Positions 15,313 through 35,273 of a stretch of DNA of 64,000 nt are shown here, one piece after another (position 1 is the first letter of the stretch; every line of letters starts with the position of its first letter). Made by a program: the position numbers and the translations under genes. The DNA comes from a virus, in IMG/VR virus record IMGVR_UViG_3300045988_182214; one strand, 5' to 3'. The notes beneath the pieces are model-generated. The model was not told where the DNA came from and ran no database searches. It was given only the letters and a program-made list of their open reading frames with translations.

Positions 15313-15600
15313 ATGGACTTGAATCAAAAATTTAATATTGCAATACAATTAAACAAAGCTTTTAATACAAGAAATGAAGAAAAGAATATTGCGGTAATAA
15401 AATATAGTGAATCAACACAAACTTATTATTCGGATGAAAATTTAGCTAAAGAGCATGTAAAACAAATAACACAAAAAGATATTAATACAGCAAAAACAAA
15501 AGCTTCATTAGAAGATTGTATGCAGCAGATAAAAGACCATTTGGAAATTGAAAAATCATATCAAAATAAAAATAAGGCAAAATGGAGGTCAACAAAATAA
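15313..15600 (+). CDS. hypothetical protein
   Basis: SD AGGAAGG upstream; its stop overlaps the next start (TAATG). Confidence 0.45.
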   Translation: MDLNQKFNIAIQLNKAFNTRNEEKNIAVIKYSESTQTYYSDENLAKEHVKQITQKDINTAKTKASLEDCMQQIKDHLEIEKSYQNKNKAKWRSTK

Positions 15601-16466
15601 TGATTAAACAAATTACAAAGATTATTGGAATAGTATTTGCTTTTCTTATTACTCAAATTGTATGTACATTGGGTGTATTTATTTTTAAATTGTTTTCTGA
15701 TTCACAATGGTATGATAATTTATATGCATATATAGAAACAGGTAATTTACTTTCATATAGTTATCTTAGTATGCTTAGTGAATTAATTATGCCTGCATTA
15801 TTTGTTTCCGATATTATAATACTTGGGTTTGTTATGCTTAAAGAATATAAAGTTAATAAATCAATCATATTTATTTCAAAATTATCATTAAAAGATGTCA
15901 AGACATTTATTTTAACAGGCATTATTATGAATTTTTTAGCTTCTGTGGTAATAGATTCCTTACCTAATAATTTGGTTTCTAATTCATATAATTCTTTGAT
16001 GAATGTTGCTGTAACCGGAAATTGGCTTCAAATACTCTTAATAACAGGTGTTATTACGCCAGTTGTTGAAGAATTAATATTTAGATACGGTATTACAAAA
16101 ATAATAAAGCAAAACAAATTCTTTAAGAAAGCAGATGTAAGCTCAATTTATATATCAGCTTTCGTTTTTGGATTAGTACATTTTAATATTATTCAAAGCA
16201 CTTATGCATTTATTTTCGGTATTATATTAGCCTATGTATATATAAAAACAGATAATTTATTGTCCTCTATTTTAATTCATATTGGAGTTAATGCAAGTAG
16301 TGTATTGTACTCTTTTATGCCTGTTATGTTACAAAATATTTGTCTAATCGTAATGAGTATTATATTTTTCATAATTGTTATCAGAAATATTTTAGTAATA
16401 AGAAATAACAGTTCACATTCTAATGTAAATAATTTTCTGTCATATCTTCTTTATCAAACAAAATAA
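15600..16466 (+). CDS. CPBP-family (CAAX protease / Abi) intramembrane metalloprotease
   Basis: Multi-TM; motifs EELIFRYG, FGLVHFN, HIGVN; GGAGG 11 nt upstream of ATG 15600. Confidence 0.65.
   Translation: MIKQITKIIGIVFAFLITQIVCTLGVFIFKLFSDSQWYDNLYAYIETGNLLSYSYLSMLSELIMPALFVSDIIILGFVMLKEYKVNKSIIFISKLSLKDVKTFILTGIIMNFLASVVIDSLPNNLVSNSYNSLMNVAVTGNWLQILLITGVITPVVEELIFRYGITKIIKQNKFFKKADVSSIYISAFVFGLVHFNIIQSTYAFIFGIILAYVYIKTDNLLSSILIHIGVNASSVLYSFMPVMLQNICLIVMSIIFFIIVIRNILVIRNNSSHSNVNNFLSYLLYQTK
16432..16445 (+). promoter_or_regulatory. promoter-like motif TTTTCTGTCATAT
   Basis: 35 nt upstream of ATG 16480. Confidence 0.55.
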
Positions 16467-20032: not shown

Positions 20033-21082
20033 ATGAGAATAAACAAGATTAAGACTAATGTAACAGTATTAAACAAGGTAGACCGTAAGAATTACCAGAT
20101 AATTAATATTGATGGTTCAGGTGATTCCATTAAAGGAACTGCCAAGTTAATCAAGGAGGATGGTTCACTTGATGCTTCGGTTACTGCAGTAATTACAGCT
20201 AATAATGCAATAGCTTACAAGTTGATTGATGATCCTAATATTCCAGATGTTCCAACTGGATATACTGTAGAAAATGGAATTTTGCTTAAGAATGGAGTCC
20301 CTGCTACAGAACAGGGTTCACTTGTAATTAATAGTATTATTGCAGGTGTTGCAGGAAGACTTATTTTATCTGTTGAACCAAGAGAACCAAGAGAAGGTTA
20401 TTTCGATATTATGTCATATACAGTTGAGTCAGATAAGTTTAATAAGCTTATCAGAAGATCTATTCCAGAAGTTACAATCATTGCTTCTTCTGAGAATAAG
20501 ATGCAGTTATATATGACATATTCAAGAACTTATACTAAGGATAAGAAGCTTGAAGATGGAACTATTGAAACAGATAATATCTTTGATGCTGCAGCAATCA
20601 TGTTATATGATGTAATGTCTGATGCAGTTGTTGATCATGTTTCTTTTGCGGAGCCAATTAAGGCTGTAGATTCTGTTAAGGCACCTAATGAAACAATTTT
20701 CGCAATTGAAGCAGATACAGTAGTCGATTCTGACGGAATTATCAAGGAAGATGATTATATTACATTAAGATTTGTTGCTTCTGAAAGCCATTCATTAAGT
20801 CTTTATAAGACAACAGCAATTGACAGTGTTCCAGAATCAATTTCAAAGGGATATAACGCAAGTCTTATTAAAGCTTCTTCAGGCAAGTGGTATATTAATG
20901 ATATCACATATAAGATCCCAGATAAGATAGTTGCTGAGCTTGCAGGTTATAATGTAATTGTGGATATTACATCTAAGGATCATGTTACAAGAATTTCTCT
21001 TGCTAATACAAATACTATGGAGATAAAGACTCTTGTTATTTCTGAAACAAGAGATAGAGGAGACATTATAACCATAGAGTAA
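20033..21082 (+). CDS. hypothetical protein, tandem paralog A
   Basis: SD AAGGAGG; N- and C-termini are homologous to the ORF at 21215 (MRINKIKTNVTVLNKVD... / ...VTRISLAN...EIKTLVISETRDRGDIITIE). Confidence 0.6.
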   Translation: MRINKIKTNVTVLNKVDRKNYQIINIDGSGDSIKGTAKLIKEDGSLDASVTAVITANNAIAYKLIDDPNIPDVPTGYTVENGILLKNGVPATEQGSLVINSIIAGVAGRLILSVEPREPREGYFDIMSYTVESDKFNKLIRRSIPEVTIIASSENKMQLYMTYSRTYTKDKKLEDGTIETDNIFDAAAIMLYDVMSDAVVDHVSFAEPIKAVDSVKAPNETIFAIEADTVVDSDGIIKEDDYITLRFVASESHSLSLYKTTAIDSVPESISKGYNASLIKASSGKWYINDITYKIPDKIVAELAGYNVIVDITSKDHVTRISLANTNTMEIKTLVISETRDRGDIITIE

Positions 21083-21214: not shown

Positions 21215-22366
21215 ATGAGAGAAAACAAAATTTTAGAAAATGTAACAGTATTAAACAAGGTTGACAACAGACAGTATTTAATTACATCTGTTACCGATGG
21301 CGTAGGAACGGCTTGTCTTTTAGAAAATGGTGAAGTAAACGAAGATATATCTGTCATGATATCATCATCTAACGCAATTGCTTTTAGACTTATCAGCAAT
21401 CCTAATATTCCAGATATTCCAGATGGATATTCAGTAGAAGACGGAATTTTACTTAAGGATGGTGTTGCTGCTACACAGCAGGGTTCACTGGTAATTAAGA
21501 GTATCGTTACATCTGTTCCAGGTAAGCTTTTATTAGCTGTATTGCCTAGAGAAAACACAACAGAACATGATGATTATATTGATTTATTTGCTTATAAGCC
21601 GGATGAGGATAAGTTTAAGAAACTTATTCCAGTTTCAATTCCAATGCCGGAAGTTATAGGTGTATGTGACAAATATGTGATACTAAAGACTTCCTATACA
21701 CACTTTGAAACAAAGAAGGATTGTAATGGAAAAGATATTTTCGCTGAATATTTTGATAATGCTGAAATTATCGTTTATGATGGTGCAAAGAATTATATTT
21801 CAAGTTATTTAATGCTTGACGCACCAATAAATAATGTCATTACTGTAAGAAATTCAATGAATGTACCTACATGGGTCATTGAATATACAGAGCAGGTATG
21901 TAATAATAATTATTATAATCCTAATTGTGATTGTGGTTATGACTGCGAAAATGATTGTGGAGATTATGATGAATGCAATAATTGTGACTATCATTTAGAT
22001 ACAATTACTAATACTAAGGAATTAATCGAGATGGATCATATTAAAGCAGAAATGATTGCTCTTAATGGTGGTACATTAATGAGGCTCAATAGCATTAATA
22101 TCCCTTCACATATTAAATCTGTTTCAATTGGTTGGAATAGTGCTGATTTTATCAGACTTGAAGACAGAATTATGATTGGAGAGTATGTTGATAAAATCAT
22201 TACTGATTCAAAGATAATGTCTGCAGTTGAAGGATATGATTGGATTGTCGATACAAGTAAGGAAGATAATGTAACAAGAATTGCTCTTGCAAACGACAAT
22301 ATGGAAATCAAGTATATTGTTATTACTGAAACATCAGATAGAGGAGACGTTGTTAAGGTAAAATAA
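21215..22366 (+). CDS. hypothetical protein, tandem paralog B with Cys-rich insert
   Basis: Homologous ends with 20033..21082; insert CNNNYYNPNCDCGYDCENDCGDYDECNNCDYH. Confidence 0.6.
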   Translation: MRENKILENVTVLNKVDNRQYLITSVTDGVGTACLLENGEVNEDISVMISSSNAIAFRLISNPNIPDIPDGYSVEDGILLKDGVAATQQGSLVIKSIVTSVPGKLLLAVLPRENTTEHDDYIDLFAYKPDEDKFKKLIPVSIPMPEVIGVCDKYVILKTSYTHFETKKDCNGKDIFAEYFDNAEIIVYDGAKNYISSYLMLDAPINNVITVRNSMNVPTWVIEYTEQVCNNNYYNPNCDCGYDCENDCGDYDECNNCDYHLDTITNTKELIEMDHIKAEMIALNGGTLMRLNSINIPSHIKSVSIGWNSADFIRLEDRIMIGEYVDKIITDSKIMSAVEGYDWIVDTSKEDNVTRIALANDNMEIKYIVITETSDRGDVVKVK

Positions 22367-22400
22367 TAAAATAATTAACAATTAAATAATGTGCATTTAT

Positions 22401-22435
22401 ACACCAGTTGACTAATCTCAACTGGTGTATTTTTT
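22401..22435 (+). terminator. rho-independent terminator
   Basis: ACACCAGTTGA ... TCAACTGGTGT followed by T6. Confidence 0.75.
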
Positions 22436-22444
22436 CTGTCATGT
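22431..22444 (+). promoter_or_regulatory. promoter-like motif TTTTTCTGTCATGT
   Basis: 34 nt upstream of ATG 22478. Confidence 0.5.
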
Positions 22445-22477: not shown

Positions 22478-24271
22478 ATGTCAATGTTTGAACATGTAAA
22501 AATTGGAGAATTAACAAAAAAGGTTATTGAGTCAGGAGTTACAGTGTGTGAACATAACCATCCAGGAGGCTCTTTGTTTGATGCCGTAGATGAACCTAAA
22601 AGTTATTTAGATGCTGCATTTAATGCAGGATATACTAAATTTGCTGTTACGGACCATGCATCATTTTCAGCAATGCAAACATGTATTGATTACGCTAAGA
22701 AAATAAGTACTGAGGAACATCCATTTAATATCATTTATGGCGTAGAGGCTTATATTGAAGTGCCACCATTTAAGATAAATGAACAGATTGGCCATATGAT
22801 TATGTTAGCCACTTCAGAAAGAGGCAAGCATATTATTGATAAGTTAAATTCTAAGGCTTCTGAAAAAAGAATGGGAAAGCCTGTTATTACAATATCAGAT
22901 TTAAAGAAATATAACTTTAACGGTGATATAATAGCAACTTCAGCTTGCGTTTCGGGTGCACCAGCTCTGCAATTATTATCAGATGATGTTTTGGATAAAA
23001 TGATTAACAGAGAAAGAAAAGCACAGCAGCATACTACTGAAAAAGACGAGCTAGTTATACATGATTGTATAAGTCCTGATGATAAAGAATATCTTTCAGC
23101 TAAAGATGAATTTGAAAGGGTATCGGCAGATTTAGATGAATTGATTAATATTCGTGATTCCAAGGAACTTAAATCAGAAAGAACACAGATTTCAAGAAAA
23201 TTAAGAGATGCAAGAAAGTGTTTAAATGATGATGATCCAGAGCTTATTAAACTGATTAACGAATATGAGGAGATAAATAATAAAATTCTGGAAGCTAAAG
23301 ATAAAATTCCTAATGTCAGAAAATTAGTTAATGCTAAGAAAGCCGAGTTGAAGGATATAAGTCTTAAGGTAGAGGAATACATTAATCATGAAAATAAGAT
23401 ACAGCATTATGAATCATTAAAGAAAAGCCCAATAGAATTAATGTCTGAAGCAGAAAAGACAATGCTTTTTTATCAGGAAATTTTTGGAGCAGGTAATTAT
23501 TACATTGAAGTTCAGAATCATGGGCTTGAAATGGAAAGCAGAACATATCCTGTGTTAGCTCAGTTAGCAAGGAAGCATAATATTCCATTAGTTGCTGCTA
23601 ATGATGCACATATGGCAGATAATTCTGATAGAAGTATTGATATGCGTAATGTAGCTAAATTTTTAAGATTTATTAAGATAAGTGAGTCGGAATCAGATAA
23701 AGAGTTATATGTAAAGACACCTTATGAACTTGCTCAGGCCTTATCAGCTATATTAACAGATGATCAGGTTGCAGAAGCACTCAATAACTTAAATGTAATT
23801 GGAAAAAGATGTGCTTATATTCCAGAAAAATCTAATCATTATCCAGTATTTGATAAGAATAAGGATTCAAACGAATTATTAAGATCTGAAGCAATTAAGG
23901 GAATTAATTGGAGATATCCTAACGGAAAAGGATGGGATGAAGAACATCAGAAACGAATGGAATACGAACTTAATATTATCATTCAGATGGGCTTTGCCGA
24001 TTATCATTTAATTGTAAAGGACTTCCTGGAATATGGAAGAATTTGTGGATTAGTACCTATGGATAAACTATCAGAAGTACCTTTAACAATTGAAGGTGCA
24101 AAAGAGTATGTTAAGGCTCACAATTATAATACCGGAATTGGAATAGGCATTGGAAGAGGTTCAGGTGCCGGTTCATTGGTTACATATTTACTTGGTATTA
24201 CCGGAATTGATCCATTTAAGTATAATCTGATTTTTGAACGATTCTTAAATCCAGAAAGAGTAAGTATGCCT
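22478..24271 (+). CDS. dnaE: DNA polymerase III alpha subunit (DnaE-type), exon 1 (PHP domain to ERVSMP)
   Basis: PHP motifs [10 protein letters not shown] and AVTDHASFS; ...[40 protein letters not shown] aligns with E. coli DnaE up to the residue just before the catalytic PDFDVDF. The continuous ORF then runs into intron sequence and stops at 24319. Confidence 0.85.
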
Positions 24272-24696
24272 AAATATATTGGGCGTTCAGCGTGGACTCT
24301 AACTCAGAGGTGTGCTTAATATTTTATTATTAAGTGCTAACGGTAGAAGTTGAATAAGACTGCTATATAAAGTGTCACAACAGGATATATAGCTTAACCC
24401 ATAGACGAAGCAGCTTCGTAAGAGAACCTACGGTCCTAATATTTTTATATAAAAGATATTGAAGGATAGCAGGCGATACCGTGCTAAGATTATAAATAAT
24501 ATTATATAAATAAAAAATTGTTCGTATATAATATTATTTATTTTAAAGTGTAACGACTATCCTTTTTAAGGAGTACAACTGAGAATGGTTACAGTTGGAA
24601 GTGCGTTGAAATATAATATTAATAATATTATATTGAGATATAGTCTAATCCCACTTATACAAGTGTTAAAGTACTACGAAAGTAGGGGTATATTTG
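24272..24696 (+). ncRNA. putative group I self-splicing intron in dnaE (no ORF)
   Basis: Splitting at 24271/24697 restores ...ERVSMP|DIDSDLALG..., colinear with E. coli ...ERVSMPDFDVDF. The upstream exon ends in U and the intron ends in G; GAGATATAGTCT (S-element-like) pairs with an upstream AGACTG for a P7; the intron looks GC-richer and more structured than its surroundings. Confidence 0.6.
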
Positions 24697-25452
24697 GATA
24701 TCGATAGTGATCTTGCTCTTGGAGTAAGAGAAAAGACAATTGAGTATGTAAGAGCTAAATATGGTAGTGAAGCTGTTGTTGGAATTATTACAGAATCAAG
24801 ACAGCAGGCTAAAGGTGCTATCAGAGATGCTGCAAGATATTATGGAAAGAAAGCCTATGATGATGAAAAGAAATTCTTATCTTTAGGAGATCAGATTCGT
24901 AAGAAAGTGCCTGCTAAAGCAACTAATTTTGAAGATATTGTTGGCATGAAAGATACTAATAGGGTTGATGAATTAGGCATTAATATTCAGGACAGCGTTT
25001 CTTTGTTAGATTTTTTAAAGGATGAATATAATAGTAATCCAGATGCTATTTCTATTCTTAATATTGCAGCTCATTGCGAAGGTATGCTTACGACATACGG
25101 ACAACATGCCGCAGGTGTTATTATTTATGATAGTAATGATGTTACTGATTATATTCCTATTAGAGATGGAAAAAAGGGAATTAAAACTACAGAAATGGAC
25201 ATGATTCAGTGCGAAGCTAATGGATTATTAAAAATGGATTTTCTTGGATTAAAAACTCTTACAATTATTACTGACACACTCAGAATGATTCAGAGAGATA
25301 CAGGAGAAGTAATTGATGTAATGAATATTCCATTAGAGGGTCCTAAAGCTGATAAGGTATACAAAGAAGTATATGCAAAAGGAAGAACTAAGAATGTTTT
25401 CCAGTTTGAGTCAGCCGGTATGAGGAATAACCTTAAGAAGTTATGCTCATAG
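24697..25452 (+). CDS. dnaE: DNA polymerase III alpha subunit, exon 2 (palm/fingers, ends ...FQFESAGMRNNLKKLCS)
   Basis: DIDSD catalytic aspartates; GQHAAGVIIYD; LKMDFLGLKTLT; VFQFESAGM matches E. coli VFQLESRGM. The reading frame ends 4 codons after the point where the homologue continues. Confidence 0.85.
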   Translation, partial: DIDSDLALGVREKTIEYVRAKYGSEAVVGIITESRQQAKGAIRDAARYYGKKAYDDEKKFLSLGDQIRKKVPAKATNFEDIVGMKDTNRVDELGINIQDSVSLLDFLKDEYNSNPDAISILNIAAHCEGMLTTYGQHAAGVIIYDSNDVTDYIPIRDGKKGIKTTEMDMIQCEANGLLKMDFLGLKTLTIITDTLRMIQRDTGEVIDVMNIPLEGPKADKVYKEVYAKGRTKNVFQFESAGMRNNLKKLCS

Positions 25453-25505
25453 TGAATAGTTAATTGAATATTTTGTATTAAAACGCATGTCATTATGATG
25501 TGCGT

Positions 25506-25519
25506 TTTTTCTGTCATAT
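25506..25519 (+). promoter_or_regulatory. promoter-like motif TTTTCTGTCATAT
   Basis: 38 nt upstream of ATG 25557. Confidence 0.55.
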
Positions 25520-25556
25520 TTCTTTTAAATTATAATAAATAAAGGAGAACAATATT

Positions 25557-25793
25557 ATGGAGAAAAATAATAAAACTCTTATGCAACGGTTTATTGAGGC
25601 TGGATATTCTGCAAAAGATATATTTCACCATGAATCAGATTTATATGTATTTGTCACACCAATTACTACTAGAGTTATTAATGAATGGTGTAAGGAAACA
25701 GGATTTGATAAGGATTGGCATTGCCCTATATTCACAGATCAGATAACTGAGAAACAAATGTATGATTGTGCATTCCAATACTATACTGAATAA
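25557..25793 (+). CDS. hypothetical protein
   Basis: SD AAAGGAG; first gene of the 5.67-kb insertion in dnaE. Confidence 0.45.
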   Translation: MEKNNKTLMQRFIEAGYSAKDIFHHESDLYVFVTPITTRVINEWCKETGFDKDWHCPIFTDQITEKQMYDCAFQYYTE

Positions 25794-25820
25794 AAATAAA
25801 TAAAGTTTAAGGAGAAAAAT

Positions 25821-26453
25821 ATGGCAATATTTCATGAACATTTACAATACCATCCAGACACAGTAGAGAAACATAAAATTACAGATAAAGAAATCAAATT
25901 TTTGTCTGATTTGCAGCATGAATTAAATACACAGGACCATGTAGGACAAGCTGATCCTCGATTTTGGGTTATTATGGGAAAAGAAAAGTGTATTGTTCCA
26001 GAAGGATATGAAGACGGTGTAACATTAATAGATAATGAGGCAGTCGAAGAAATTGCTGATAATATTGATGATGCAATTGTATTTTTTAATAAGGAATTTG
26101 AAGAAAACGGTGATGCTTGGGTTATTTCAAAAGAATATGATGGATATTATGTTACATCAAAAGAAGATAATGATTACGAGGAATGTTTAGCTGATCTTGA
26201 TGATTTAAAGACTTGGTTGAATGAGCATAATTATGGCAGATATACTTTCACCTGTTATGCATATAGAGATAAAATTTATGAAAACACAATGTTTTTAACA
26301 GAAAAGGCAGCCGCTGAACATCTAAAGGCAAATCGTTATCATTACGATGAGTACGCTCATACCTATGCTATGACTGCATGGAGAAGTCCTGAAGTAGAAG
26401 ATATCATTAAGATTTTACAGTCAGTAGATTTTTCTGCTATTGTTAGAAAATAA
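25821..26453 (+). CDS. hypothetical acidic protein
   Basis: SD AAGGAG upstream. Confidence 0.5.
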   Translation: MAIFHEHLQYHPDTVEKHKITDKEIKFLSDLQHELNTQDHVGQADPRFWVIMGKEKCIVPEGYEDGVTLIDNEAVEEIADNIDDAIVFFNKEFEENGDAWVISKEYDGYYVTSKEDNDYEECLADLDDLKTWLNEHNYGRYTFTCYAYRDKIYENTMFLTEKAAAEHLKANRYHYDEYAHTYAMTAWRSPEVEDIIKILQSVDFSAIVRK

Positions 26454-26461
26454 AAGAATGA

Positions 26462-26520
26462 TATTATCGCAATTAAGCAAAAAACCCCAACCGACAATAG
26501 CCGGTTGTGGGTAGTTCAAT
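26462..26520 (+). repeat. dispersed structured element, copy 3 (intercistronic, upstream of the NTase gene)
   Basis: TATTATCGCAATTAAGCAAAAAACCCCAACCGACAATAGCCGGTTGTGGGTAGTTCAAT; hairpin CAACCGAC/GCCGGTTG. Confidence 0.6.
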
Positions 26521-26541
26521 TACAAGGATAGGAAAGAGAAT

Positions 26542-27531
26542 ATGATAAATAAAAATATATTAAATATGCCTGAGTATTCATTTTTAAAGGAAAATCAAAA
26601 TTTAGATAAGAATATTTGTATACTTGGATTAGGTGGTAGCAGAGCATATGGGACAAATCTTCCAGAAAGCGATATTGATATAAGAGGAGTTGCTGTTAGA
26701 AGAAAAGAAGATATCTTGTTAGGTAATGATTTTGAAAATTTTGTAGATGTTAATACAGATACAACTATTTATAGTTTTGACAAAATTATTGAATTATTAA
26801 CTAAATGCAATCCAAATACTATTGAATTTTTAGGATTAGATGCAGATGATTATATTTATAAAAATGAAATTGGGGAATTATTATTAAAAAATAAAGATAT
26901 TTTTTTATCAAATAGATGTATCAATACATTTAGTGAATATGCATTGCAACAGTTATATCGTATGCAGCAGAAGACCAATGCTGCTTTAACGGAAAAAGAA
27001 TTAAATAGACACATTTCTGGAGTGCTTAATAATATGTCCAAGAAAATGAATGATAAGTACAATTTAGATGAAAATAATGTGTCTTTTTATTTGGTTGATG
27101 GCAAAATCAAATGTAATATTATTGCAACACAGTGTTCAATGGAAGATTTGTCAGGAATGCTTTCAGAATTTAATAACACTTTAAGAGATTACCGGAAAAC
27201 AAGTAAAAGGAATGAACATGCATTAAATCATGGTAAAATAGCAAAACATAGTATGCATTTACTTAGATTATATATGATGGGAATTGATTTAGTTTCTGAA
27301 GGGAAAATTCAAACGAAAAGAATTAAAGAACATGATTTGTTGATGGACATTAGAAATGGTGTATATCTTGATGAAAATGGAATCCCTAATAAACATTTTT
27401 TCAAAATAGTAGATGAATACAAGAATAAGTTTGAAAATGCATGTAAAAACTCTGTATTGCCAGATGAGCCGGATATAGACAAAATCAATAAATTTAGAAT
27501 GGAAATCAATGAGAAAATTGTAAAGTTATAA
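26542..27531 (+). CDS. polbeta-superfamily nucleotidyltransferase (COG3541-like)
   Basis: LGLGGSRAYGTNLPESDIDIRGV fits the hG[GS]x9-13DhD NTase motif. Confidence 0.6.
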   Translation: MINKNILNMPEYSFLKENQNLDKNICILGLGGSRAYGTNLPESDIDIRGVAVRRKEDILLGNDFENFVDVNTDTTIYSFDKIIELLTKCNPNTIEFLGLDADDYIYKNEIGELLLKNKDIFLSNRCINTFSEYALQQLYRMQQKTNAALTEKELNRHISGVLNNMSKKMNDKYNLDENNVSFYLVDGKIKCNIIATQCSMEDLSGMLSEFNNTLRDYRKTSKRNEHALNHGKIAKHSMHLLRLYMMGIDLVSEGKIQTKRIKEHDLLMDIRNGVYLDENGIPNKHFFKIVDEYKNKFENACKNSVLPDEPDIDKINKFRMEINEKIVKL

Positions 27532-27537
27532 AATTAA

Positions 27538-27567
27538 ACTGGTTACTATTAGTAGCCAGTTTTTTTA
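27538..27567 (+). terminator. rho-independent terminator
   Basis: ACTGGTTACT att AGTAGCCAGT followed by T7. Confidence 0.65.
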
Positions 27568-27581
27568 TTTTTCTGTCATTG
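27568..27581 (+). promoter_or_regulatory. promoter-like motif TTTTCTGTCATTG
   Basis: 35 nt upstream of ATG 27616. Confidence 0.5.
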
Positions 27582-27615
27582 TATTATTATAAAATTTAAA
27601 AAGGAGAATAAAATT

Positions 27616-28074
27616 ATGAAAACTAATGCATTTGAAATTAAGGAAAACAACTTAGAAACAGTAAATGATATGATAGAGGCACTATTGGAAGTGCCTAAGA
27701 ATTATTTACTGCATCCATTAGGACAGAAATGCGCAATTGCAGTTGATAATTACCATAAATGTGTATATTTAGACGATCCTAATATGATGAGCGAGTTTAA
27801 ATATGAATTAGAAGAAGATATAAAAGAAAATGATGATTGGGATGGAGAAATCCCTGACGACAGTGATAGCCTTGAAAGATTTTCATTTTATTATGTTTGG
27901 ATAGGATATGAGTCAGATTGCGGAGACAATTCAGGAGAATATTCATATTTTTTAAATGAGGATATGGCAAATGATTTCTTTGAATCTTCTAAAAATACTG
28001 ATAAAACATTAGGAACTGCTTCATTTATAAACGGCAGATTAGAACCTGTTAAAGTTATAAAAAGTACATTGTAA
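27616..28074 (+). CDS. hypothetical acidic protein
   Basis: SD AAGGAG upstream. Confidence 0.5.
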   Translation: MKTNAFEIKENNLETVNDMIEALLEVPKNYLLHPLGQKCAIAVDNYHKCVYLDDPNMMSEFKYELEEDIKENDDWDGEIPDDSDSLERFSFYYVWIGYESDCGDNSGEYSYFLNEDMANDFFESSKNTDKTLGTASFINGRLEPVKVIKSTL

Positions 28075-28089
28075 AAAGAAAGGAATTTT

Positions 28090-28359
28090 ATGAAAACTTT
28101 AAATATTATAAATAACTTTATTAAAACTTCAGAATCAGAAACAGAAAATAATATGTTGAATATCATTAAAAATACTTTAATAAATGAGATTTCAGAAGCT
28201 TCTAAAGAAGTTTCTGAGGCGAGTTGGTTGACTGAAAGTACATATGATGACGATGGATATTCTAACGATGATGGCGAGGAAGTTATTTATGCAGATACAG
28301 CAGTTAATATAATTGAAAGCGTCATATATGATAATTCTGATGAAAATAATAACAACTAA
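28090..28359 (+). CDS. small acidic protein, paralog of 48357..48608
   Basis: MKTLNIINNFIKTSESETENNMLNIIKNTLINEISEASKEVSEASWLTESTYDDDG... versus MKTLNTINELIEKAESENERRILDTVKNTLIGEVKEASNEMSACSWWTGATYDDDE... Confidence 0.5.
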   Translation: MKTLNIINNFIKTSESETENNMLNIIKNTLINEISEASKEVSEASWLTESTYDDDGYSNDDGEEVIYADTAVNIIESVIYDNSDENNNN

Positions 28360-28371
28360 GGAGAATAAATA

Positions 28372-28629
28372 ATGATAATAATAAGAAATGGTAAGGAAAT
28401 AAAATTAACAGATGATGAGATTTATAAGGCTCATAAGGAATTTGTTTCAACATGGATGATTAATACAGCTAAAGAAATTATTCAGCCTCAGTATCATTCT
28501 GATATTACTGAGAATGATTATATTGATATTGGTGAAGCAGCTTATGATACTTACGCAGAAGGTAATGGACTTACTGAATATGAAGCTGTTGAAGATGCTG
28601 TGGAAAAATTCTTAAGTGAAAGAAATTGA
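28372..28629 (+). CDS. hypothetical protein
   Basis: SD AAGGAG upstream. Confidence 0.45.
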   Translation: MIIIRNGKEIKLTDDEIYKAHKEFVSTWMINTAKEIIQPQYHSDITENDYIDIGEAAYDTYAEGNGLTEYEAVEDAVEKFLSERN

Positions 28630-28687
28630 ATATTTTTCATAACTGAATAAGATTTTTTGAAAGCGGGAGACTTATGTTTTCTGCTTT

Positions 28688-28701
28688 TTTTTCTGTCATA
28701 A
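28688..28701 (+). promoter_or_regulatory. promoter-like motif TTTTCTGTCATAA
   Basis: 32 nt upstream of ATG 28733. Confidence 0.5.
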
Positions 28702-28732
28702 ATATATTAAAAATTATAAAGGAGAAAAATTA

Positions 28733-29614
28733 ATGAAAAATATTATGATTTTTGATGGGAATTACATTCTCAGAAGATCTTTTTACGGTGTTCCAGAATT
28801 AAAAACCTCAAAGGGATTTCCGACTAATGCAATTAAAGGAGCTTTAAATACAATTCTATATATGAAAGAAAAGTATAGTCCTGATGAATTAATTGTTGCA
28901 TTTGATACTGCAAAGCCAACTTTCAGGCATTTAATGTATAATGGGTACAAGGCAACTAGAGATCCTGCACCGGAAGAATTTAAGATTCAGAGACAGGCTA
29001 TTGTCCCTATTCTTAAAACAATGAATATATGTGTTATTGAAAAAGAAGGATATGAAGCAGATGATATTATAGGGACAATTTCAACTATTGAAAGTAAAGC
29101 AGGTAATAAAGTAAATATCATATCTGCGGATCATGATTTGTTGCAATTATGTAATGATTTAGTATCATTAATTGTTCCAAACAACCCGGAAGATATTTGG
29201 ACTCCGGCAGAAATTATGAATGAATATTCCGTTACTCCTAAACAGTTTATTGATGTAAAAGCATTAATGGGAGATAAATCGGATAATATTCCTGGAGCTG
29301 CAGGTATTGGACCTAAAACTGCAAGTAAACTAATACATAAGTATGGAAATTTGTTTAACATATATATGAATATTTCAGATATTGAATCTAATATGTCTAA
29401 AGGAAAAAGTATTTCAACTTGTTTGATAAATAGTGAAGATAATATTTTGTTGTCAAAAATTTTAGCAACAATAAAAACAGATGTAGAACTTGATGCTTAT
29501 AACGCTAATGTATCAGATAATATGTTAAATGAAATTAGTGAGCAGATATTAGGTTTGTATGAACTTAACAGTATTATAAGTATACTTAAAAATGGTAACA
29601 TTGTTTGCCTATAA
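28733..29614 (+). CDS. 5'-3' exonuclease / flap endonuclease (Pol I N-terminal FEN family)
   Basis: IFDGNYILRRSF; FDTAKPTFRHLMYNGYKATR; GYEADDIIGT; LMGDKSDNIPGAAGIGPKTASKLI. Colinear with the Taq/E. coli Pol I 5' nuclease domain. Confidence 0.9.
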   Translation: MKNIMIFDGNYILRRSFYGVPELKTSKGFPTNAIKGALNTILYMKEKYSPDELIVAFDTAKPTFRHLMYNGYKATRDPAPEEFKIQRQAIVPILKTMNICVIEKEGYEADDIIGTISTIESKAGNKVNIISADHDLLQLCNDLVSLIVPNNPEDIWTPAEIMNEYSVTPKQFIDVKALMGDKSDNIPGAAGIGPKTASKLIHKYGNLFNIYMNISDIESNMSKGKSISTCLINSEDNILLSKILATIKTDVELDAYNANVSDNMLNEISEQILGLYELNSIISILKNGNIVCL

Positions 29615-29742
29615 TTATATTTAAGGAGAAAATCATGATAATTGAAATTTTAACAAATGGTTAGTGTAATATTAAATTCGAAAAGACAAATTGTAGAGTA
29701 AACGCTTCATATTTAACCGATGTCCAAAATGACTTATTAAAT

Positions 29743-30051
29743 ATGTGCATTAATTATTATAACAATAATACGGCATCCTGTTATTTTGATTCTGAAGGCT
29801 CTACAGCAACGCTAGTTTTGACACCGGATACAGCTTTCATAATTCATGAAGGGGAGCATTTAGGCTTAATTAAACTATTGGAATTACCAAAGGAAATCAT
29901 TGATTGTATAGTAAAGGAAATTGTAAAACAAATTGATTCTGTTGCAAGTTTTTTATCATGTGAATGTGATGATTTATTTCAGTATGAAAAAAGAAAATCT
30001 GAATTAATACAAAAATTATATTTTGTACATGATAAGAGTAATTCAAATTAA
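29743..30051 (+). CDS. hypothetical protein (possibly initiating at 29635 with an in-frame TAG at 29662)
   Basis: ORF-track ATG 29743 has no SD. In the same frame upstream, a perfect SD AAGGAG lies 6-7 nt before ATG 29635, followed by 9 codons, TAG, and then 26 sense codons joining this ORF. Confidence 0.4.
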   Translation: MCINYYNNNTASCYFDSEGSTATLVLTPDTAFIIHEGEHLGLIKLLELPKEIIDCIVKEIVKQIDSVASFLSCECDDLFQYEKRKSELIQKLYFVHDKSNSN

Positions 30052-30065
30052 AACAAATGCTTAAT

Positions 30066-30100
30066 AACAAGTACCCATTAATAGGTACTTGTTATTTTAT
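30066..30100 (+). terminator. rho-independent terminator
   Basis: AACAAGTACCC attaat AGGTACTTGTT followed by ATTTTATTTTT. Confidence 0.7.
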
Positions 30101-30113
30101 TTTTCTGTCATTT
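30100..30113 (+). promoter_or_regulatory. promoter-like motif TTTTCTGTCATTT
   Basis: 38 nt upstream of ATG 30151. Confidence 0.5.
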
Positions 30114-30150
30114 ATTTATTATAACAATAAATGGAAGGAGAGTAAAAAAT

Positions 30151-30732
30151 ATGATTAAAGAATTTAAGGAATTAGTAAATGCAATAAATTCGCCAGATAA
30201 TGAATATAGAGAGAATGATTTAGATATGTTAAATTACAATATGGCCGCATTTGGAGAATATGTACAGATTGTTTATCATCAAAACTATTCAACTCCAATT
30301 AAATATGCTACACTTGAGGGAGAAGAATTACGAGAAGCTATTCAGTCTATGGATAAAAATCGGAGAATTAAACATGAAGCTGCAATAGCTGCGTGTTCCC
30401 AAATCAATAGAGATTGTGAATATTATAATGTTCCTAAGTTTTGCCCTGAAACAACTGATAGACATATAATCGCAGATTTTTGCGCTCAGGTAACGGCTGC
30501 TTTTTATCTTGACGGAATCGGTAGAGATGCTAAAACTATAGATGATGTTATAAAGGCAATGACTCAAAATTGTAAAAGTGTTAATATTAGTAATATAACA
30601 AACAATATTGACACAAATGAACTATCAGATATTGATTTAGATTTAGGCGGAGAAGATGATGAAGATAAAATTATGCCAGATGTAATTCATACTGAAATTA
30701 ATAAAGATAACAGAGAGGAAGAAGTAAGATAA
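30151..30732 (+). CDS. hypothetical protein
   Basis: SD GGAAGGAG upstream. Confidence 0.5.
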   Translation: MIKEFKELVNAINSPDNEYRENDLDMLNYNMAAFGEYVQIVYHQNYSTPIKYATLEGEELREAIQSMDKNRRIKHEAAIAACSQINRDCEYYNVPKFCPETTDRHIIADFCAQVTAAFYLDGIGRDAKTIDDVIKAMTQNCKSVNISNITNNIDTNELSDIDLDLGGEDDEDKIMPDVIHTEINKDNREEEVR

Positions 30733-31037
30733 TGGTAACTTTTATTAGAACATATGAATCCGGTCCATGGATAATAGATGAATACGATAATAAAACATAT
30801 AGAATTCTATTAAGAAGAGATTTAAGAACAGGTAAAGTCATAAGATTCTTTTTTACTCCAAAGATTCCATATTATGATATTGAAATTAAAACCATAAAAG
30901 ATGATTTTTATATTAGTATTACTGGTAATGTTTCATATGATATTAATGATATTGATAAATTAAAAGGCAGAATAGATTATGCTAAAAATTTGATAACTTA
31001 TATAAAAGAAAATATATGTAACAAGTATTCTTTTTAA
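30732..31037 (+). CDS. hypothetical protein
   Basis: Start overlaps the upstream stop. Confidence 0.45.
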   Translation: MVTFIRTYESGPWIIDEYDNKTYRILLRRDLRTGKVIRFFFTPKIPYYDIEIKTIKDDFYISITGNVSYDINDIDKLKGRIDYAKNLITYIKENICNKYSF

Positions 31038-31047
31038 TATTCATGCA

Positions 31048-31073
31048 AGCGTCCAAAATTGGACGCTTTTTTT
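31048..31073 (+). terminator. rho-independent terminator
   Basis: AGCGTCC aaaatt GGACGCT followed by T7. Confidence 0.75.
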
Positions 31074-31074
31074 A

Positions 31075-31088
31075 ATTTTCTGTCATAA
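31075..31088 (+). promoter_or_regulatory. promoter-like motif TTTTCTGTCATAA
   Basis: 36 nt upstream of ATG 31124; drives the dnaE C-terminal cistron. Confidence 0.5.
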
Positions 31089-31123
31089 ATTATATAGTTA
31101 TGAATTGAAAGGAGAAATTTAAA

Positions 31124-32809
31124 ATGAATAAAACAGGTATTGAAGATTTAATAGCAATGAATGCTTTATATCGTCCTGGTCCTGAAAAGTTTATACCTGA
31201 TTTCATAGAAGGTAAAAAGGATGCATCTAAGATTAAATATTTATGTCCTCAATTAGAGCCAATTTTGTCAACTACTTATGGACAGATAGTTTATCAGGAA
31301 CAGGTAATGCAGATTGTTCGTGATTTAGCAGGATATACATGGGGGCGTTCTGATTTAGTCCGTAGAGCTATGTCAAAAAAACATCAGGATGAAATTGATG
31401 CTGAAAGACACACTTTTGTATATGGCAATGCTGATACTAAAAAAGAAAATGAAGCATTAGTACCAGGTTGTATTTCAAATGGAATACCAGAAGAAATTGC
31501 TCATAAAATCTGGGATGCGATGGTTGATTTTGCTAAGTATGCTTTTAATAAGTCACATGCCTCTGCTTATGCTGTTACATCATATTGGACTGCTTTTCTT
31601 AAGTATTATTATCCGGCTTATTATCTTACAAATGTAATAAATCATACTGATAAGATTGATGAAGTCGCTGATGATATTAGTGATGCTCTTGATTTTGGAG
31701 TAAAGGTATTGCCTCCGGACATTAATGCTTCAAATTTACATTGTGATGTTGTAGATGGAAATATTTTGTATGGTCTGAGTAATATTAAGAATGTTGGAGC
31801 AGAAGCAGCTAAAATTATTGAAGATAGAAATGTTAATGGAGAATATTCTGATATTAAGGATTTTATCAAACGAACAAATATTAATGCAGAAGCATTAAGT
31901 TCCTTAATTAAAGCAGGTGCTTTTGATTGCCTTGGTTATACAAGAACAATGATATCATTAGATATGATTTGTATGAAAGAAATTCAGGATACAATCAAGA
32001 AAATCAGAGAGAAGAGTAAGTTTATTGAAAACGCAAGTAAAGTTATTGAATTTGTGGAAGATTATATTGATCTTGATGAGTTTAAGGAAAAAATTTCAGA
32101 AGAAAATATTTCCTTTCAAGTTACTTCAAAAAAGATGCCAACTAAGGATTCCATAATTAAACGTATCAATTCAGCTAAGACAGTTATAGAAAGCTTAGAA
32201 GATGATCTTGAAAATATAGATATTGATTATGTAGAAGATGATTTAGGTCAGATTCTAAATGATGAAAAAGAAGTGTTAGGTGTTTATATTACAGGGCATC
32301 CAATTGATGAGTATAATATTTATACAGATCCCATTTCTGATATTTCAACAGAAGTTAATGATGTATCTGGTATAATTAAAAATCTTGTTATAAGAAAGGA
32401 CAGAAATGGATACGAATGGGTAACTTTTGAGGTAGAAGATAAAACAGGTTCTATTAATGGTGTATGTTTTTCTAAGGATTATGCAAATATTAGAGACTTA
32501 CTTGTTAATGATGCTAAATTATGTTTATCAGGGAAAATTCAAGTAGATGATTTTAGATCTTCAGATGACGAAACTGTATATCAGATTATTGTTAAATCTG
32601 TTAAACCTTTAAAGAAAAATAAGTCTTCATATAGATTTATTTGTACTGTTTCCGAAGTAAACGATGTTCTTGATTCTATTAATGAATATCTGGTGGACGT
32701 TGATGGAGATTATTTATATTGGCTTGATTCAACAACTGGAATTGAACATTTATGTAAGAAATTCATTAACCCTGATATGTCAGCCCCTTCAATAGTACGC
32801 AAATGCTAA
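31124..32809 (+). CDS. dnaE: DNA polymerase III alpha subunit, C-terminal cistron (fingers/thumb/HhH/OB)
   Basis: MNKTGIEDLIAMNALYRPGP...YGQIVYQEQVMQIVRDLAGYTWGRSDLVRRAMSKK...FNKSHASAYAVTSYWTAFLKYYYPAYY is colinear with E. coli DnaE from ...[15 protein letters not shown] onward; its own SD AAAGGAG and ATG. Confidence 0.9.
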   Translation: MNKTGIEDLIAMNALYRPGPEKFIPDFIEGKKDASKIKYLCPQLEPILSTTYGQIVYQEQVMQIVRDLAGYTWGRSDLVRRAMSKKHQDEIDAERHTFVYGNADTKKENEALVPGCISNGIPEEIAHKIWDAMVDFAKYAFNKSHASAYAVTSYWTAFLKYYYPAYYLTNVINHTDKIDEVADDISDALDFGVKVLPPDINASNLHCDVVDGNILYGLSNIKNVGAEAAKIIEDRNVNGEYSDIKDFIKRTNINAEALSSLIKAGAFDCLGYTRTMISLDMICMKEIQDTIKKIREKSKFIENASKVIEFVEDYIDLDEFKEKISEENISFQVTSKKMPTKDSIIKRINSAKTVIESLEDDLENIDIDYVEDDLGQILNDEKEVLGVYITGHPIDEYNIYTDPISDISTEVNDVSGIIKNLVIRKDRNGYEWVTFEVEDKTGSINGVCFSKDYANIRDLLVNDAKLCLSGKIQVDDFRSSDDETVYQIIVKSVKPLKKNKSSYRFICTVSEVNDVLDSINEYLVDVDGDYLYWLDSTTGIEHLCKKFINPDMSAPSIVRKC

Positions 32810-32830: not shown

Positions 32831-32860
32831 TACCGCTGTTTATTGCAGCGGTATTTTTTT
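32831..32860 (+). terminator. rho-independent terminator
   Basis: TACCGCTG tttatt GCAGCGGTA followed by T7. Confidence 0.75.
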
Positions 32861-32921: not shown

Positions 32922-33833
32922 ATGATACTTAGTAACAACAACAGTAATATTAAGGAATTAAGAAATAAAAAAAATAAGCATGATTTAAATTCTTATATGG
33001 ATTTTATGGCAAAAAACAAAATGAAAAGTAATTCTTTCTTTTCAAAATCAAAACAGTATATAAAGATTTTTATTCCATTTATTATTTCTGTTTTTATAAT
33101 TTTATTTTCTATGTTTATTGCAACATTTATAGACAGTCTATTAAATATGTATATGAATGATGCAGGAGGAATTTCAACTAAAATAGATTATGAAGGATTT
33201 CGATTAATTTACACAATATCAACATATACATTAATGTTTGTTATGTGCATTATTTGTATAAAAAGCTCATTTTACAATTATAAAAAAGATTTGTTTATGA
33301 AAAATAAATTAGTAGTAAATTGGAATTTTGTATTTTGTTTCATATTAACTTCTGTAATATTGCAGCTTATTTCAGGAATTCAAATGCATTTTGTAAATGT
33401 ATCAAATATTGATTATGGAAGTTTAGGAATAAAAACAATTATATCTACAATAATAGCAACTTTTGTGGCACCTATTATTGAGGAATTGACTTTTAGATAT
33501 ATAATTTATGGCTATGCATATAAAGCAAGCAACAATAAATTATGTGCAAATATAATCCAAGCAGTTTTATTTGGAATAATTCATTTTAATTTTATTTTAT
33601 TCCCTATATATGCTTTTGGCGGATATTTGTTAGGTGCTGTAAGAGATAAATATGGTATTAAACTTAGCAGCTTATATCATATTCTAATAAACTGTGTGGC
33701 ATTAATACCATTTACGTTTTTTATAACAAATATATATTTACAGGTATGCATTTTAATAGTCTGCATAATGAGTTTAATTTATTTTGTAATTAAGTGTTTT
33801 GAAAATATCAATATAGAAATTAAGGAGCAATAA
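32922..33833 (+). CDS. CPBP-family (CAAX protease / Abi) intramembrane metalloprotease, second copy
   Basis: Multi-TM; IIEELTFRYIIYG, FGIIHFNF, HILINC. Confidence 0.65.
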   Translation: MILSNNNSNIKELRNKKNKHDLNSYMDFMAKNKMKSNSFFSKSKQYIKIFIPFIISVFIILFSMFIATFIDSLLNMYMNDAGGISTKIDYEGFRLIYTISTYTLMFVMCIICIKSSFYNYKKDLFMKNKLVVNWNFVFCFILTSVILQLISGIQMHFVNVSNIDYGSLGIKTIISTIIATFVAPIIEELTFRYIIYGYAYKASNNKLCANIIQAVLFGIIHFNFILFPIYAFGGYLLGAVRDKYGIKLSSLYHILINCVALIPFTFFITNIYLQVCILIVCIMSLIYFVIKCFENINIEIKEQ

Positions 33834-34244: not shown

Positions 34245-35273
34245 ATGGCAGATAAGAATTTATTATTAAATAAAAAAAACAATAAAGATGAATATGTTGA
34301 TGAATTATTTGATACAAATAAACCAATAGAAAACATAAATATTTTATCAGAGGATAATTATACCGATATTTTAAATGATAAAGAGATTTTAAATGAAAAA
34401 GAGAAACTATTATTAGAAAATAATATAACTTATTATATTAAATCATTCGCTGATTATCCGGTTTTATCCAAAGATGAAACTCTTAAATTATTTGAAGAGA
34501 TAAAAAAACATCCTAAAAAGAAAAAAGAAATAACCGAAAAATTGATTTTATCTAATATGCGTTTAGTCATCAGTATTGCTAAAGCCGTTACAGCTAAAAC
34601 GCAAAGTTTTGAAATGGATGATTTATGTCAGGCCGGTATTTTCGGATTATACAGAGCTATACAAATGTTTGATTATAAATTAGGATATGCATTTTCAACT
34701 TATGCAACTCATTGGATTAGACAGAGTATATATAGAGAATTAGCCAATTATGATTTATTAGTTAGATTCCCTGTACATGTAAGAGAACAGGATTCTTTTG
34801 TTAAGACTACATTTGTGGATTTAACTAATAAACTTCAAAGAAAACCTACAATTGATGAATTATATGATGTAGTAAAACAAAGATATCCTCTTTTAACTAA
34901 AGAAATGCTTGTACATATTCAGAGCTTTAATGAATTGGTTTCATTAGATGCACCTATTCAAAGTGATGAAGGCCATGACGATTCGTGTTTGGCTGATTAT
35001 ATAGAAGCTCCTGAACCTAAAGTTGAAGATACGATTATTCAAAAAGAAATGAATGAACTGCTTTGGAAAGAAGTTGAAGATTGTCTCACTCCTAGAGAAT
35101 TATATGTAATTAAGAGTAGAATGGGATATGGTTCAAAGGTTAAAACTTTAAAAGATATAGGTACTGAATGGAATGTTTCCAGAGAACGAATCAGACAAAT
35201 TGAATCAAAAGCAATAAAAAAGATTAGAGTTCGTTTCAGACGGAAAGGATATAGTATACAATCTTTTATGTAA
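34245..35273 (+). CDS. sigma-70 family RNA polymerase sigma factor (phage-encoded)
   Basis: Regions 2.1-2.4 ILSNMRLVISIAKA...GIFGLYRAIQMFDYKLGYAFSTYATHWIRQSIYR; region 4 HTH TLKDIGTEWNVSRERIRQIESKAIKKIR. Confidence 0.9.
   Translation: MADKNLLLNKKNNKDEYVDELFDTNKPIENINILSEDNYTDILNDKEILNEKEKLLLENNITYYIKSFADYPVLSKDETLKLFEEIKKHPKKKKEITEKLILSNMRLVISIAKAVTAKTQSFEMDDLCQAGIFGLYRAIQMFDYKLGYAFSTYATHWIRQSIYRELANYDLLVRFPVHVREQDSFVKTTFVDLTNKLQRKPTIDELYDVVKQRYPLLTKEMLVHIQSFNELVSLDAPIQSDEGHDDSCLADYIEAPEPKVEDTIIQKEMNELLWKEVEDCLTPRELYVIKSRMGYGSKVKTLKDIGTEWNVSRERIRQIESKAIKKIRVRFRRKGYSIQSFM

Follow-up and report, generated by a model that had tools for sequence, protein, structure and literature searches.

In the virus record IMGVR_UViG_3300045988_182214 of IMG/VR, the replicative alpha subunit of DNA polymerase III (Pol III alpha, or DnaE) is encoded by two separate genes, referred to here as dnaE-N and dnaE-C. 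Both lie on the + strand of the 64,000-nucleotide stretch of this record that was analysed (the window), and an interval of 5,671 nt (25453-31123) separates them. The best explanation, to which we give a probability of about 0.8, is an old fission of a full-length dnaE gene, such that the phage makes two polypeptides, most likely associated non-covalently. An earlier inspection of the window, made from its letters and open reading frames (ORFs) and called here the sequence-only reading, had left the choice between a two-chain enzyme and an unusually large intervening element. The two-chain option is strongly supported by the conserved break point, the variable spacers between the halves, their separate expression signals and the purifying selection on them. 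The intervening element is effectively excluded by the arrangement in one of the relatives, as discussed below.

Position and conservation of the break in DnaE

The upstream gene, dnaE-N, is made up of two exons. Exon 1 (22478-24271), the boundary of which is known from the intron-less strain L002, encodes the PHP domain (Pfam PHP, E 1.4e-18) and the first part of the palm. Exon 2 (24697-25452) carries the catalytic DIDSD motif and completes the palm; it also encodes the thumb and ~60 residues at the start of the fingers. Once the 425-nt intron is removed, the product is 849 aa long. The exon-2 ORF terminates in ...VFQFESAGMRNNLKKLCS (final residues ...GMRNNLKKLCS), with TAG at 25450-25452 and a TGA directly next to it. 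The downstream gene, dnaE-C (31124-32809, 561 aa), opens with MNKTGIEDLIAMNALYRPGP and encodes the remaining fingers, a helix-hairpin-helix (HhH) domain, an OB fold and the C-terminal region. Pfam matches DNA_pol3_alpha (palm) in both dnaE-N exons, and HHH_6 (E 7.5e-27) and the OB fold (tRNA_anti-codon, E 3.7e-09) in dnaE-C, which also matches PDB 2HPI with E 3.5e-64. The PDxDxD catalytic motif of the palm is found in the spliced dnaE-N, which reads ...ERVSMPDIDSDLA. The full domain set of a DnaE-type C-family polymerase (PHP, palm, fingers, HhH and OB) is, therefore, present across the halves. It does not form the single polypeptide expected of DnaE; it occupies two cistrons, and this arrangement is kept across the clade. 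The PHP region is also interrupted, at residues ~172-321 of the N half (within 22478-24271), by a ~150-residue Lys/Glu-rich stretch that looks like a coiled coil and is skipped by tblastn alignments to most relatives.

The fingers domain is partitioned cleanly between the two pieces. The Pfam profile DNA_pol3_finger has 166 positions, of which 1-59 fall on the N piece and 63-162 on the C piece, and no portion of the domain is lost or duplicated. In alignments to solved structures, residue 249 of the N half (counted in exon 2) corresponds to residue 623 of E. coli alpha, and residue 6 of the C half to residue 628; the break maps near E. coli residues 624-627. With Taq alpha, the N alignment stops at residue 679, five residues short of the end of the N half, and residue 5 of the C half pairs with 686, which places the break at ~684/685 by extrapolation. 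The fingers of E. coli alpha extend from residue 561 to 911, limits that reportedly come from Lamers et al. in 2006. The cut sits ~60-65 residues into the fingers domain and not at the border of palm and fingers, where the sequence-only reading had put it. Its basic claim of a dnaE in two cistrons stands, as the ORF ends, the clean partition of the finger profile and the same layout in strains L001 and L002 all agree with it.

When N exon 2 and the C half were modelled by AlphaFold2 as one fused chain, the mean pLDDT was 87, and the top structural matches of the model are the DnaE structures 7PU7, 2HPI and 5FKU (E about 1e-43). At the junction, helices 240-250 and 257-267 are connected by a loop of six residues (251-256). 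Since the break falls within a short inter-helix loop, association of the two chains would rebuild the normal polymerase fold. In the proposed mechanism, two separate transcription units would give two polypeptides. The PHP domain, the thumb, the palm with the aspartates of the active site and ~60 residues at the start of the fingers would come from DnaE-N (849 aa, ~97 kDa). DnaE-C (561 aa, ~64 kDa) would supply most of the fingers, the duplex-binding HhH domain and the OB fold. The chains would then fold together around the loop and restore a Pol III alpha of the usual kind. Between the two genes lies normal early/replication gene space of the phage, which has gained and lost genes and in which a FEN-type exonuclease gene is a frequent resident.

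The split is not a sequencing error, the possibility of which had been raised earlier. L001 (103 kb) and L002 (95 kb), two independent viral contigs that come from different metagenomes, show 98-99% identity and a matching gap of ~5.68 kb, and the protein clusters agree with them. The 90%-identity cluster of dnaE-C has 203 members; none of the 15 that are listed exceeds 561 aa or is a fused form. In the dnaE-N cluster (251 members), the protein is seen either as 849 aa (intron-less) or as 613 + 252 aa (with the intron). Both halves are without internal stops or frameshifts in the three strains. Across these strains, exon 1 of the N half has 19 synonymous changes vs 1 non-synonymous change, and dnaE-C differs from that of L001 by 21 synonymous and 6 non-synonymous changes, with a non-synonymous to synonymous ratio (pN/pS) of 0.073. 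Against L001 and L002, respectively, pN/pS is 0.013 and 0.032 for N exon 1, and 0.155 and 0.074 for N exon 2. Both dnaE halves are thus under purifying selection (pN/pS 0.01-0.15). A disrupted and decaying gene, or an assembly artefact, in a phage that uses the host polymerase would be suggested by the interruption itself, and one gene of the interval does have a nonsense polymorphism. Such an explanation is hardly credible against open, selected halves in three strains, a break point kept across 47-99% identity and the concurrence of independent assemblies from many samples.

The same break is seen in a whole clade. A search with the C half returned stand-alone proteins at 43-70% identity, the complete ones being 536-658 aa long, with only finger, HHH_6 and OB domains. 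The spliced N half returned a matching series (47-78% identity, 808-893 aa) with PHP, pol3_alpha and a partial finger. The N halves (47-99% identity) all close with ...VFQFESxGMRxxLKxL and 1-4 further residues, and the C halves all open with M and 2-85 residues (mostly 2-10, and 39-76 in a subset), followed by (S)IEDIIAMNALYRPGP. N ends and C starts share one alignment position across the clade, at which unsplit relatives are continuous and read ...LKQLNPSNIEDIVAMNALYRPGP. Split-type C halves occupy roughly six to ten 50%-identity clusters. The extended C halves, with 39-76 extra residues before the IE(D/L)IIAM helix, are P0012, P0016, P0017, P0018, P0021, P0022, P0026 and P0030. This extension, which the dnaE-C of the window lacks, could be a docking or regulatory module.

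The spacing of the halves varies among the relatives. In L081 the gap is 2.0 kb, and N is followed by the FEN gene, a DUF3232 gene, a 107-aa ORF and C. In L088, 8 genes lie between the halves over 4.0 kb (an 82-aa ORF, the FEN gene and six small ORFs). In L170, the gap of 3.9 kb holds AAA_5 and CobT_C-like genes. The largest distance, 18.4 kb, is found on a single 110.6-kb contig (L087 and L083), where genes for an MCM-like AAA+ protein, an HNH protein and a metallophosphatase lie between the halves on the opposite strand, along with further genes for UvrD, PARP, ParA and Rep3. No N half is present within 10 kb upstream of C in L171, nor in the 3.4 kb between C and the contig end in L085. Both halves are found in the same genome wherever enough contig is available (L081, L087/L083, L088 and L170). 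The two regions are contiguous in over 70 further relatives among viruses, with identities of 41% or below. The comparison with relatives that had been suggested as a check thus gave an unsplit dnaE in the distant ones and differing interval contents in the split ones.

All split forms group in a single clade (bootstrap 100) of the neighbour-joining tree built from the N region; the outgroups of this clade, P0139, P0145 and then P0147-P0153, are unsplit. Some observations do weigh against a fission followed by two-chain assembly. Full-length P0127 (1,403 aa; L089 10001-14212) nests in the split clade, beside the split P0129, with bootstrap 82, and P0141, which is unsplit at the break site, groups weakly within it (bootstrap 54). 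A simple, single and irreversible fission is, therefore, not the whole history, unless the neighbour-joining tree is at fault. The junction of P0127, LKELLHDGKGSIEDII, is without the proline conserved in unsplit forms, and the protein may be a secondary re-fusion of two halves. Also, no docking element is evident at the new termini, where the tails are of 1-4 residues (N) and mostly 2-10 residues (C). Lastly, the scan for a second polymerase covered 20 ORFs of the window, out of a genome of ~95-103 kb.

That scan, of the 20 larger ORFs elsewhere in the window, found no other DNA polymerase; the proteins recognized include RecJ, RecA, a primase Zn-ribbon protein, a UvrD helicase, a methylase and a sigma factor. 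Because the halves co-occur, both are under selection and no other polymerase is seen among the scanned ORFs, the two chains would be expected to assemble, and the complex is probably the phage replicase. The halves might instead be functionally independent. N could, for instance, work alone as a PHP exonuclease or a crippled polymerase, and C could bind DNA or the clamp and have a host protein as its partner. The halves are indeed far apart and not co-transcribed in some genomes, some C halves have gained the N-terminal extension of 39-76 residues, and no docking element is evident. Independence is still unlikely, as the break cuts through the middle of a domain, and the finger helices that flank the loop pack together in the model. 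Moreover, the two halves accompany each other in every genome with enough contig available, the sequence flanking the break is as conserved as in unsplit relatives, and selection on both halves is strong.

The clade consists of uncultured human-gut phages and probable phage-plasmids. Megablast of the locus against GenBank phages gave no match. Protein searches of GenBank phages (with the window C half and with the two halves of a relative, P0011 and P0128) and of PLSDB (with the window C half) returned relatives at 41% identity or less only, and among the listed GenBank phage records matched by both halves, the halves are adjacent. The clade is without a deposited or cultured representative in the GenBank phage and PLSDB collections searched. 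The species representatives of GTDB gave mostly cellular Lachnospiraceae DnaE at ~40% identity, with two partial closer matches, L128 and L157. A candidate host, suggested by a MAG label only, is Lachnospira pectinoschiza. PMBT24, an Enterocloster phage of ~100 kb, was proposed as a relative from its gene list and was rejected, there being no GenBank phage record above ~41% identity. Among the relatives of the DnaE clade, ParA is encoded near the polymerase genes in L083, L085 and L089. A Rep3-type initiator is also found in the split L083 and L085, and a weak ParB match in the unsplit L089. Some members of the clade may, judging from these genes, live as phage-plasmids. Proteins of the window are also carried by some contigs of 400-700 kb, for which integration or mis-assembly is possible.

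Expression signals and intervening elements

The window is low-GC phage DNA, with about 27-34% guanine and cytosine around the locus, uniform across it, and its genes lie nearly all on the + strand. Against an expectation of 1.4, the window holds 23 copies of the motif TTCTGTCAT; 22 of these copies are on the + strand, and they span positions 1099 to 62979. It is typically placed 38-48 nt upstream of start codons, usually with a T run before it and AT after it, and often directly behind a terminator hairpin. The sigma factor that the phage encodes at 34245-35273 may recognize this putative promoter. As the motif is spread over the whole genome region and the base composition is uniform, the interval between the dnaE halves looks native and not foreign.

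Near the locus, TTCTGTCAT starts at 25509, 27571, 28691, 30103 and 31078. Upstream of dnaE-N, a terminator hairpin at 22399-22430 (folding energy, dG, -18.8 kcal/mol, z -8.3) is followed by a copy of the motif at 22434-22442. Directly after the dnaE-N stop, there is an intrinsic-terminator hairpin with a U-tract (25480-25508; dG -13.9 kcal/mol, z -5.3) and then the motif (25509-25517). Motif and hairpin scans placed further modules of terminator and motif inside the interval, at 27536-27579, at 28659-28699 upstream of the FEN gene and at 30063-30111. The C half is preceded by a terminator hairpin at 31047-31068 (dG -13.8 kcal/mol, z -4.8), by the motif at 31078-31086 and by the ribosome-binding site AAAGGAG just 5' of its ATG; the earlier claim of its own motif, ribosome-binding site and start codon is confirmed. 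The hairpin scan also found a terminator after dnaE-C (32831-32853). In the relatives, the C halves are likewise preceded by a hairpin and the same motif or a variant of it (TTCTGACAT, TTCGGTCAT, TTCGTCAT). It had also been claimed that each of about ten interval genes has the promoter motif. Four motifs were found, by which the ten interval ORFs would form four or five transcription units and not ten.

It is in the light of these signals that a single intervening element must be considered, that is, 5.67 kb removed as a whole to restore one polymerase. A genuine mobile intron is present in dnaE-N, 760 nt upstream of the break, and split inteins are classically found in DnaE, both that of cyanobacteria and that of 'fractured genes' (PMC2677866). 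The idea is nevertheless highly improbable. The N half has a terminator behind its stop, and the C half has a promoter-like motif, a ribosome-binding site and an ATG of its own. In the L087/L083 relative, the 18.4 kb between the halves include opposite-strand genes, and among the listed members of the 90%-identity cluster there is no fused form.

An intein had been rejected in the sequence-only reading, and rightly so. Pfam finds no Hint/intein domain in either half. The tails past the conserved sequence are of 1-4 (N) and 2-10 (most C) residues, as compared to split-intein parts of 88-105 and 33-54 residues. An N-intein (~90-105 residues with a Cys start) is absent, there being only the 1-4 residues past the conserved LKxL. 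A C-intein (~33-54 residues, ending in HN and followed by Cys, Ser or Thr) is absent as well, since the C half of the window starts with MNKTG and continues with IEDLI. The Cys in ...KKLCS is not conserved among the N halves, and the longer C-half extensions of some relatives are without an N-side partner.

The interval does not resemble a group I or group II intron either. Rfam intron families are unmatched in the whole window at gathering thresholds and in 24150-25650 at E up to 1, and terminators and promoter-like motifs lie inside the interval and at both its ends. Nor does it look like an excisable skin-like or phage-like element. There is no recombinase among the ten interval ORFs, and the only direct repeats flanking the interval are promoter modules, which would not fuse the reading frames; no repeats that restore the gene were found.

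The intron within dnaE-N (24272-24696, + strand) is a different matter. It is 425 nt long, has no ORF and is exactly absent in L002. The ORFs at 22478-24319 and 24694-25452 are the two exons of one gene, and the earlier label of 'exon 2' is correct, since L002 (99% identical) is without precisely 24272-24696, and ...ERVSMP joins DIDSDLA there in frame. Three states of the intron are seen. It is absent in L002 (3566/3567), ORF-less with 425 nt in the window, and equipped with an HNH ORF in L001 (2869-3382), where a 172-aa HNH homing endonuclease is encoded by an insertion at window position 24513. The 5' exon ends in U and the 425-nt intron ends in G, and its fold has a z-score of -3.4. It is probably a group I intron, a class to which the boundaries, the clean absence in L002 and the HNH ORF point, with the Rfam Intron_gpI core unmatched; in 24150-25650, Rfam at E up to 1 gave one chance sRNA match only. 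The distant relatives P0133, P0134, P0146 and P0148 read through the intron site into a conserved ...SITQRCA tail and, therefore, the intron has spread across the clade. Insertions of 0.4-2.3 kb were also observed in the DnaE of distant phages, at L004 1655-3941, L026 8759-9161, L028 8252-9308 and L044 7993-9299. Three of them are at the MP|DID intron site of the window and one is near N residue 505, and dnaE looks like a hot spot for intervening elements.

Contents and history of the interval

The sequence-only reading described the interval as a 5.67-kb insertion. This wording is misleading, as the split is older than the phage of the window, and the interval is, from its gene content, a mosaic built by several events and not by a single one. 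All its ten ORFs are on the + strand. A block at 25557-28359 holds a 78-aa ORF (from 25557), a 210-aa ORF of phrog_3205 (from 25821), a 329-aa RlaP/pol-beta nucleotidyltransferase gene (26542-27531), a 152-aa ORF (from 27616) and an 89-aa ORF (from 28090). It is followed by an 85-aa ORF, o28372 (28372-28629), with 67% identity to L088 12552-12782, which lies directly after dnaE-N in that relative. Next comes the gene of the FEN-type 5'-3' exonuclease (28733-29614, 293 aa; Pfam 5_3_exonuc_N and 5_3_exonuc). Both the exonuclease and the nucleotidyltransferase had been recognized in the sequence-only reading, and both identifications hold.

Further downstream, an ORF at 29635-30051 has a good ribosome-binding site and an in-frame TAG at 29662-29664, its longest open run being 29743-30051 (102 aa). 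The last two genes, which together span 30151-31037, encode a 193-aa DUF3232 protein (from 30151) and a 101-aa protein, o30732 (from 30732). This pair is conserved just upstream of dnaE-C in L081, where the genes between the halves are those of FEN, the DUF3232 protein and an o30732 homologue. In L088, they include FEN and the o28372 homologue. FEN, found between the halves in both L081 and L088, is the most recurrent inter-half gene. Neither the block at 25557-28359 nor the 29635/29743 ORF is matched in the sequence retrieved from L081 and L088, which includes the whole gap between the halves in each, and both appear to be specific to the lineage of the window.

The codon at 29662-29664, a stop that follows the ninth codon of the 29635 ORF, is TAG in the window and in L002, and TGG (Trp) in L001. 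It is a nonsense polymorphism in an interval gene. Reassignment of the stop codon, which this TAG had brought to mind, was rejected, as the long ORFs end in TAA (40), TGA (9) and TAG (9), and L001 has TGG at this position.

A PADLOC scan of nine of the ten interval ORFs (all but FEN) for defence systems gave no match, and a tRNA scan found none. A 'dispersed structured element' had been placed in the interval earlier, and this does not hold up; the intergenic pieces of the interval recur in the window only as terminator/promoter modules. A GC-rich hairpin at 26487-26507, between the 210-aa ORF and the nucleotidyltransferase gene, has no other copy in the window. It is an intrinsic terminator on the minus strand only, where no gene is evident, and may be what the sequence-only reading took for that element.

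The flanks of the locus are syntenic with the relatives. A family of proteins of 349-383 aa is encoded upstream of dnaE-N, and an Rce1-like protease, a 131-aa protein and the sigma factor downstream of dnaE-C. In the window, the upstream family is present as tandem paralogues just before dnaE-N (20033-21082, 349 aa, and 21215-22366, 383 aa), each with its own motif, and it is single-copy in L081 and L088. The second paralogue (21215-22366) has a Cys/Asp-rich insert, CNNNYYNPNCDCGYDCENDCGDYDECNNCDYH. Two genes for Rce1-like membrane proteins of the CAAX protease family lie in the replication region, at 15582-16466 and 32922-33833. The latter is directly downstream of dnaE-C, a position kept in L081, L083 and L088.

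Known split polymerases and meaning of the fission

Cyanobacterial DnaE (Ssp/Npu) and the 'fractured' DnaE genes of marine metagenomes are known to be split by inteins, whose parts of 88-105 and 33-54 residues ligate the halves into one chain (Dassa et al. 2009, PMC2677866). As in the window, a replicative alpha subunit is made there from two separate genes, and the halves of the fractured genes share a locus with another gene between them. The halves in the window, however, are without any intein sequence. A homing endonuclease separates the halves of the fractured genes, whereas 2 to >15 unrelated genes separate those of the clade of the window. Both kinds of split are at other sites; the cyanobacterial one, just before the FNKSH motif, is ~140 residues downstream of the break described here.

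A second case is the minimal Pol III alpha of jumbo phages of group 2.2, which is predicted to be made from two distant genes (Iyer et al. 2021, PMC7824862). These also are two separately encoded proteins without inteins, with their genes far apart. The jumbo-phage module, however, is reduced and has no PHP, HhH or OB domain, unlike the full domain set found here, and it is split between the NTP-binding and Mg/template-binding subdomains and not in the fingers. It also accompanies a family B polymerase, which was not found among the 20 ORFs scanned in the window. In Microbacterium phages, an intein-less DnaE, likewise phage-borne, was annotated as two genes (2020, PMC7302621). In AnnaSerena, which has this type of split, the two genes are adjacent, only 10 nt apart, and the cut separates the PHP domain from all that comes after it (345 + 767 aa), with no break at the fingers site.

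Other polymerase families provide examples as well. The PolB of Methanothermobacter is split into two polypeptides, and RNA polymerase subunits of the phiKZ type are split too. In T7-like cyanophages, PolA is encoded by separate exo and pol genes (Czernecki et al. 2023, PMC10201439). As proposed for DnaE here, the two chains of these enzymes are thought to reassemble non-covalently, with solvent-exposed new termini. Their cuts, however, fall between domains, whereas the cut in the window is inside a domain, and the halves of the split PolA are adjacent genes, whereas those of the present clade drift apart in the genome. In open-access text, neither an intein-free fingers split of a full-length DnaE nor such drifting apart of the halves was found. 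Thus, natural fission of polymerase genes is already known, and an intein-free split in the fingers of a full-length DnaE appears to be new.

A further proposal, which we hold to be doubtful and offer tentatively, is that the fission was kept because it is useful. The replicase would be an obligate heterodimer, and separate expression or titration of its halves would give the phage a two-key control over when its DNA synthesis starts. Accessory genes of replication, such as those of FEN, a nucleotidyltransferase or AAA+ proteins, would preferentially enter and leave the interval, P0127 would be a natural re-fusion, and the loop would be an intein-free split site. If true, both fission and fusion of a replicative polymerase are tolerated, and the conserved loop is a ready split site for the engineering of C-family polymerases without inteins.

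The catalytic subunit of replicative C-family polymerases is regarded as a single chain, and the known natural exception, cyanobacterial DnaE, is rejoined by an intein. At least one NCBI record names the C half 'OB-fold nucleic acid binding domain-containing protein', and annotation pipelines will, therefore, miscount the polymerases of these phages. The findings are of relevance to replication, protein engineering and phage genome evolution. The loop at about residues 624-627 of E. coli alpha is a natural split site for protein-complementation work. The locus is also a case study of an essential gene that was broken, gained its own terminator and promoter and then drifted apart. Among abundant gut phages, an entire clade has retained a full-length DnaE that is cut in the fingers and has no rejoining device, and the fingers domain, thus, appears to tolerate a two-chain construction.

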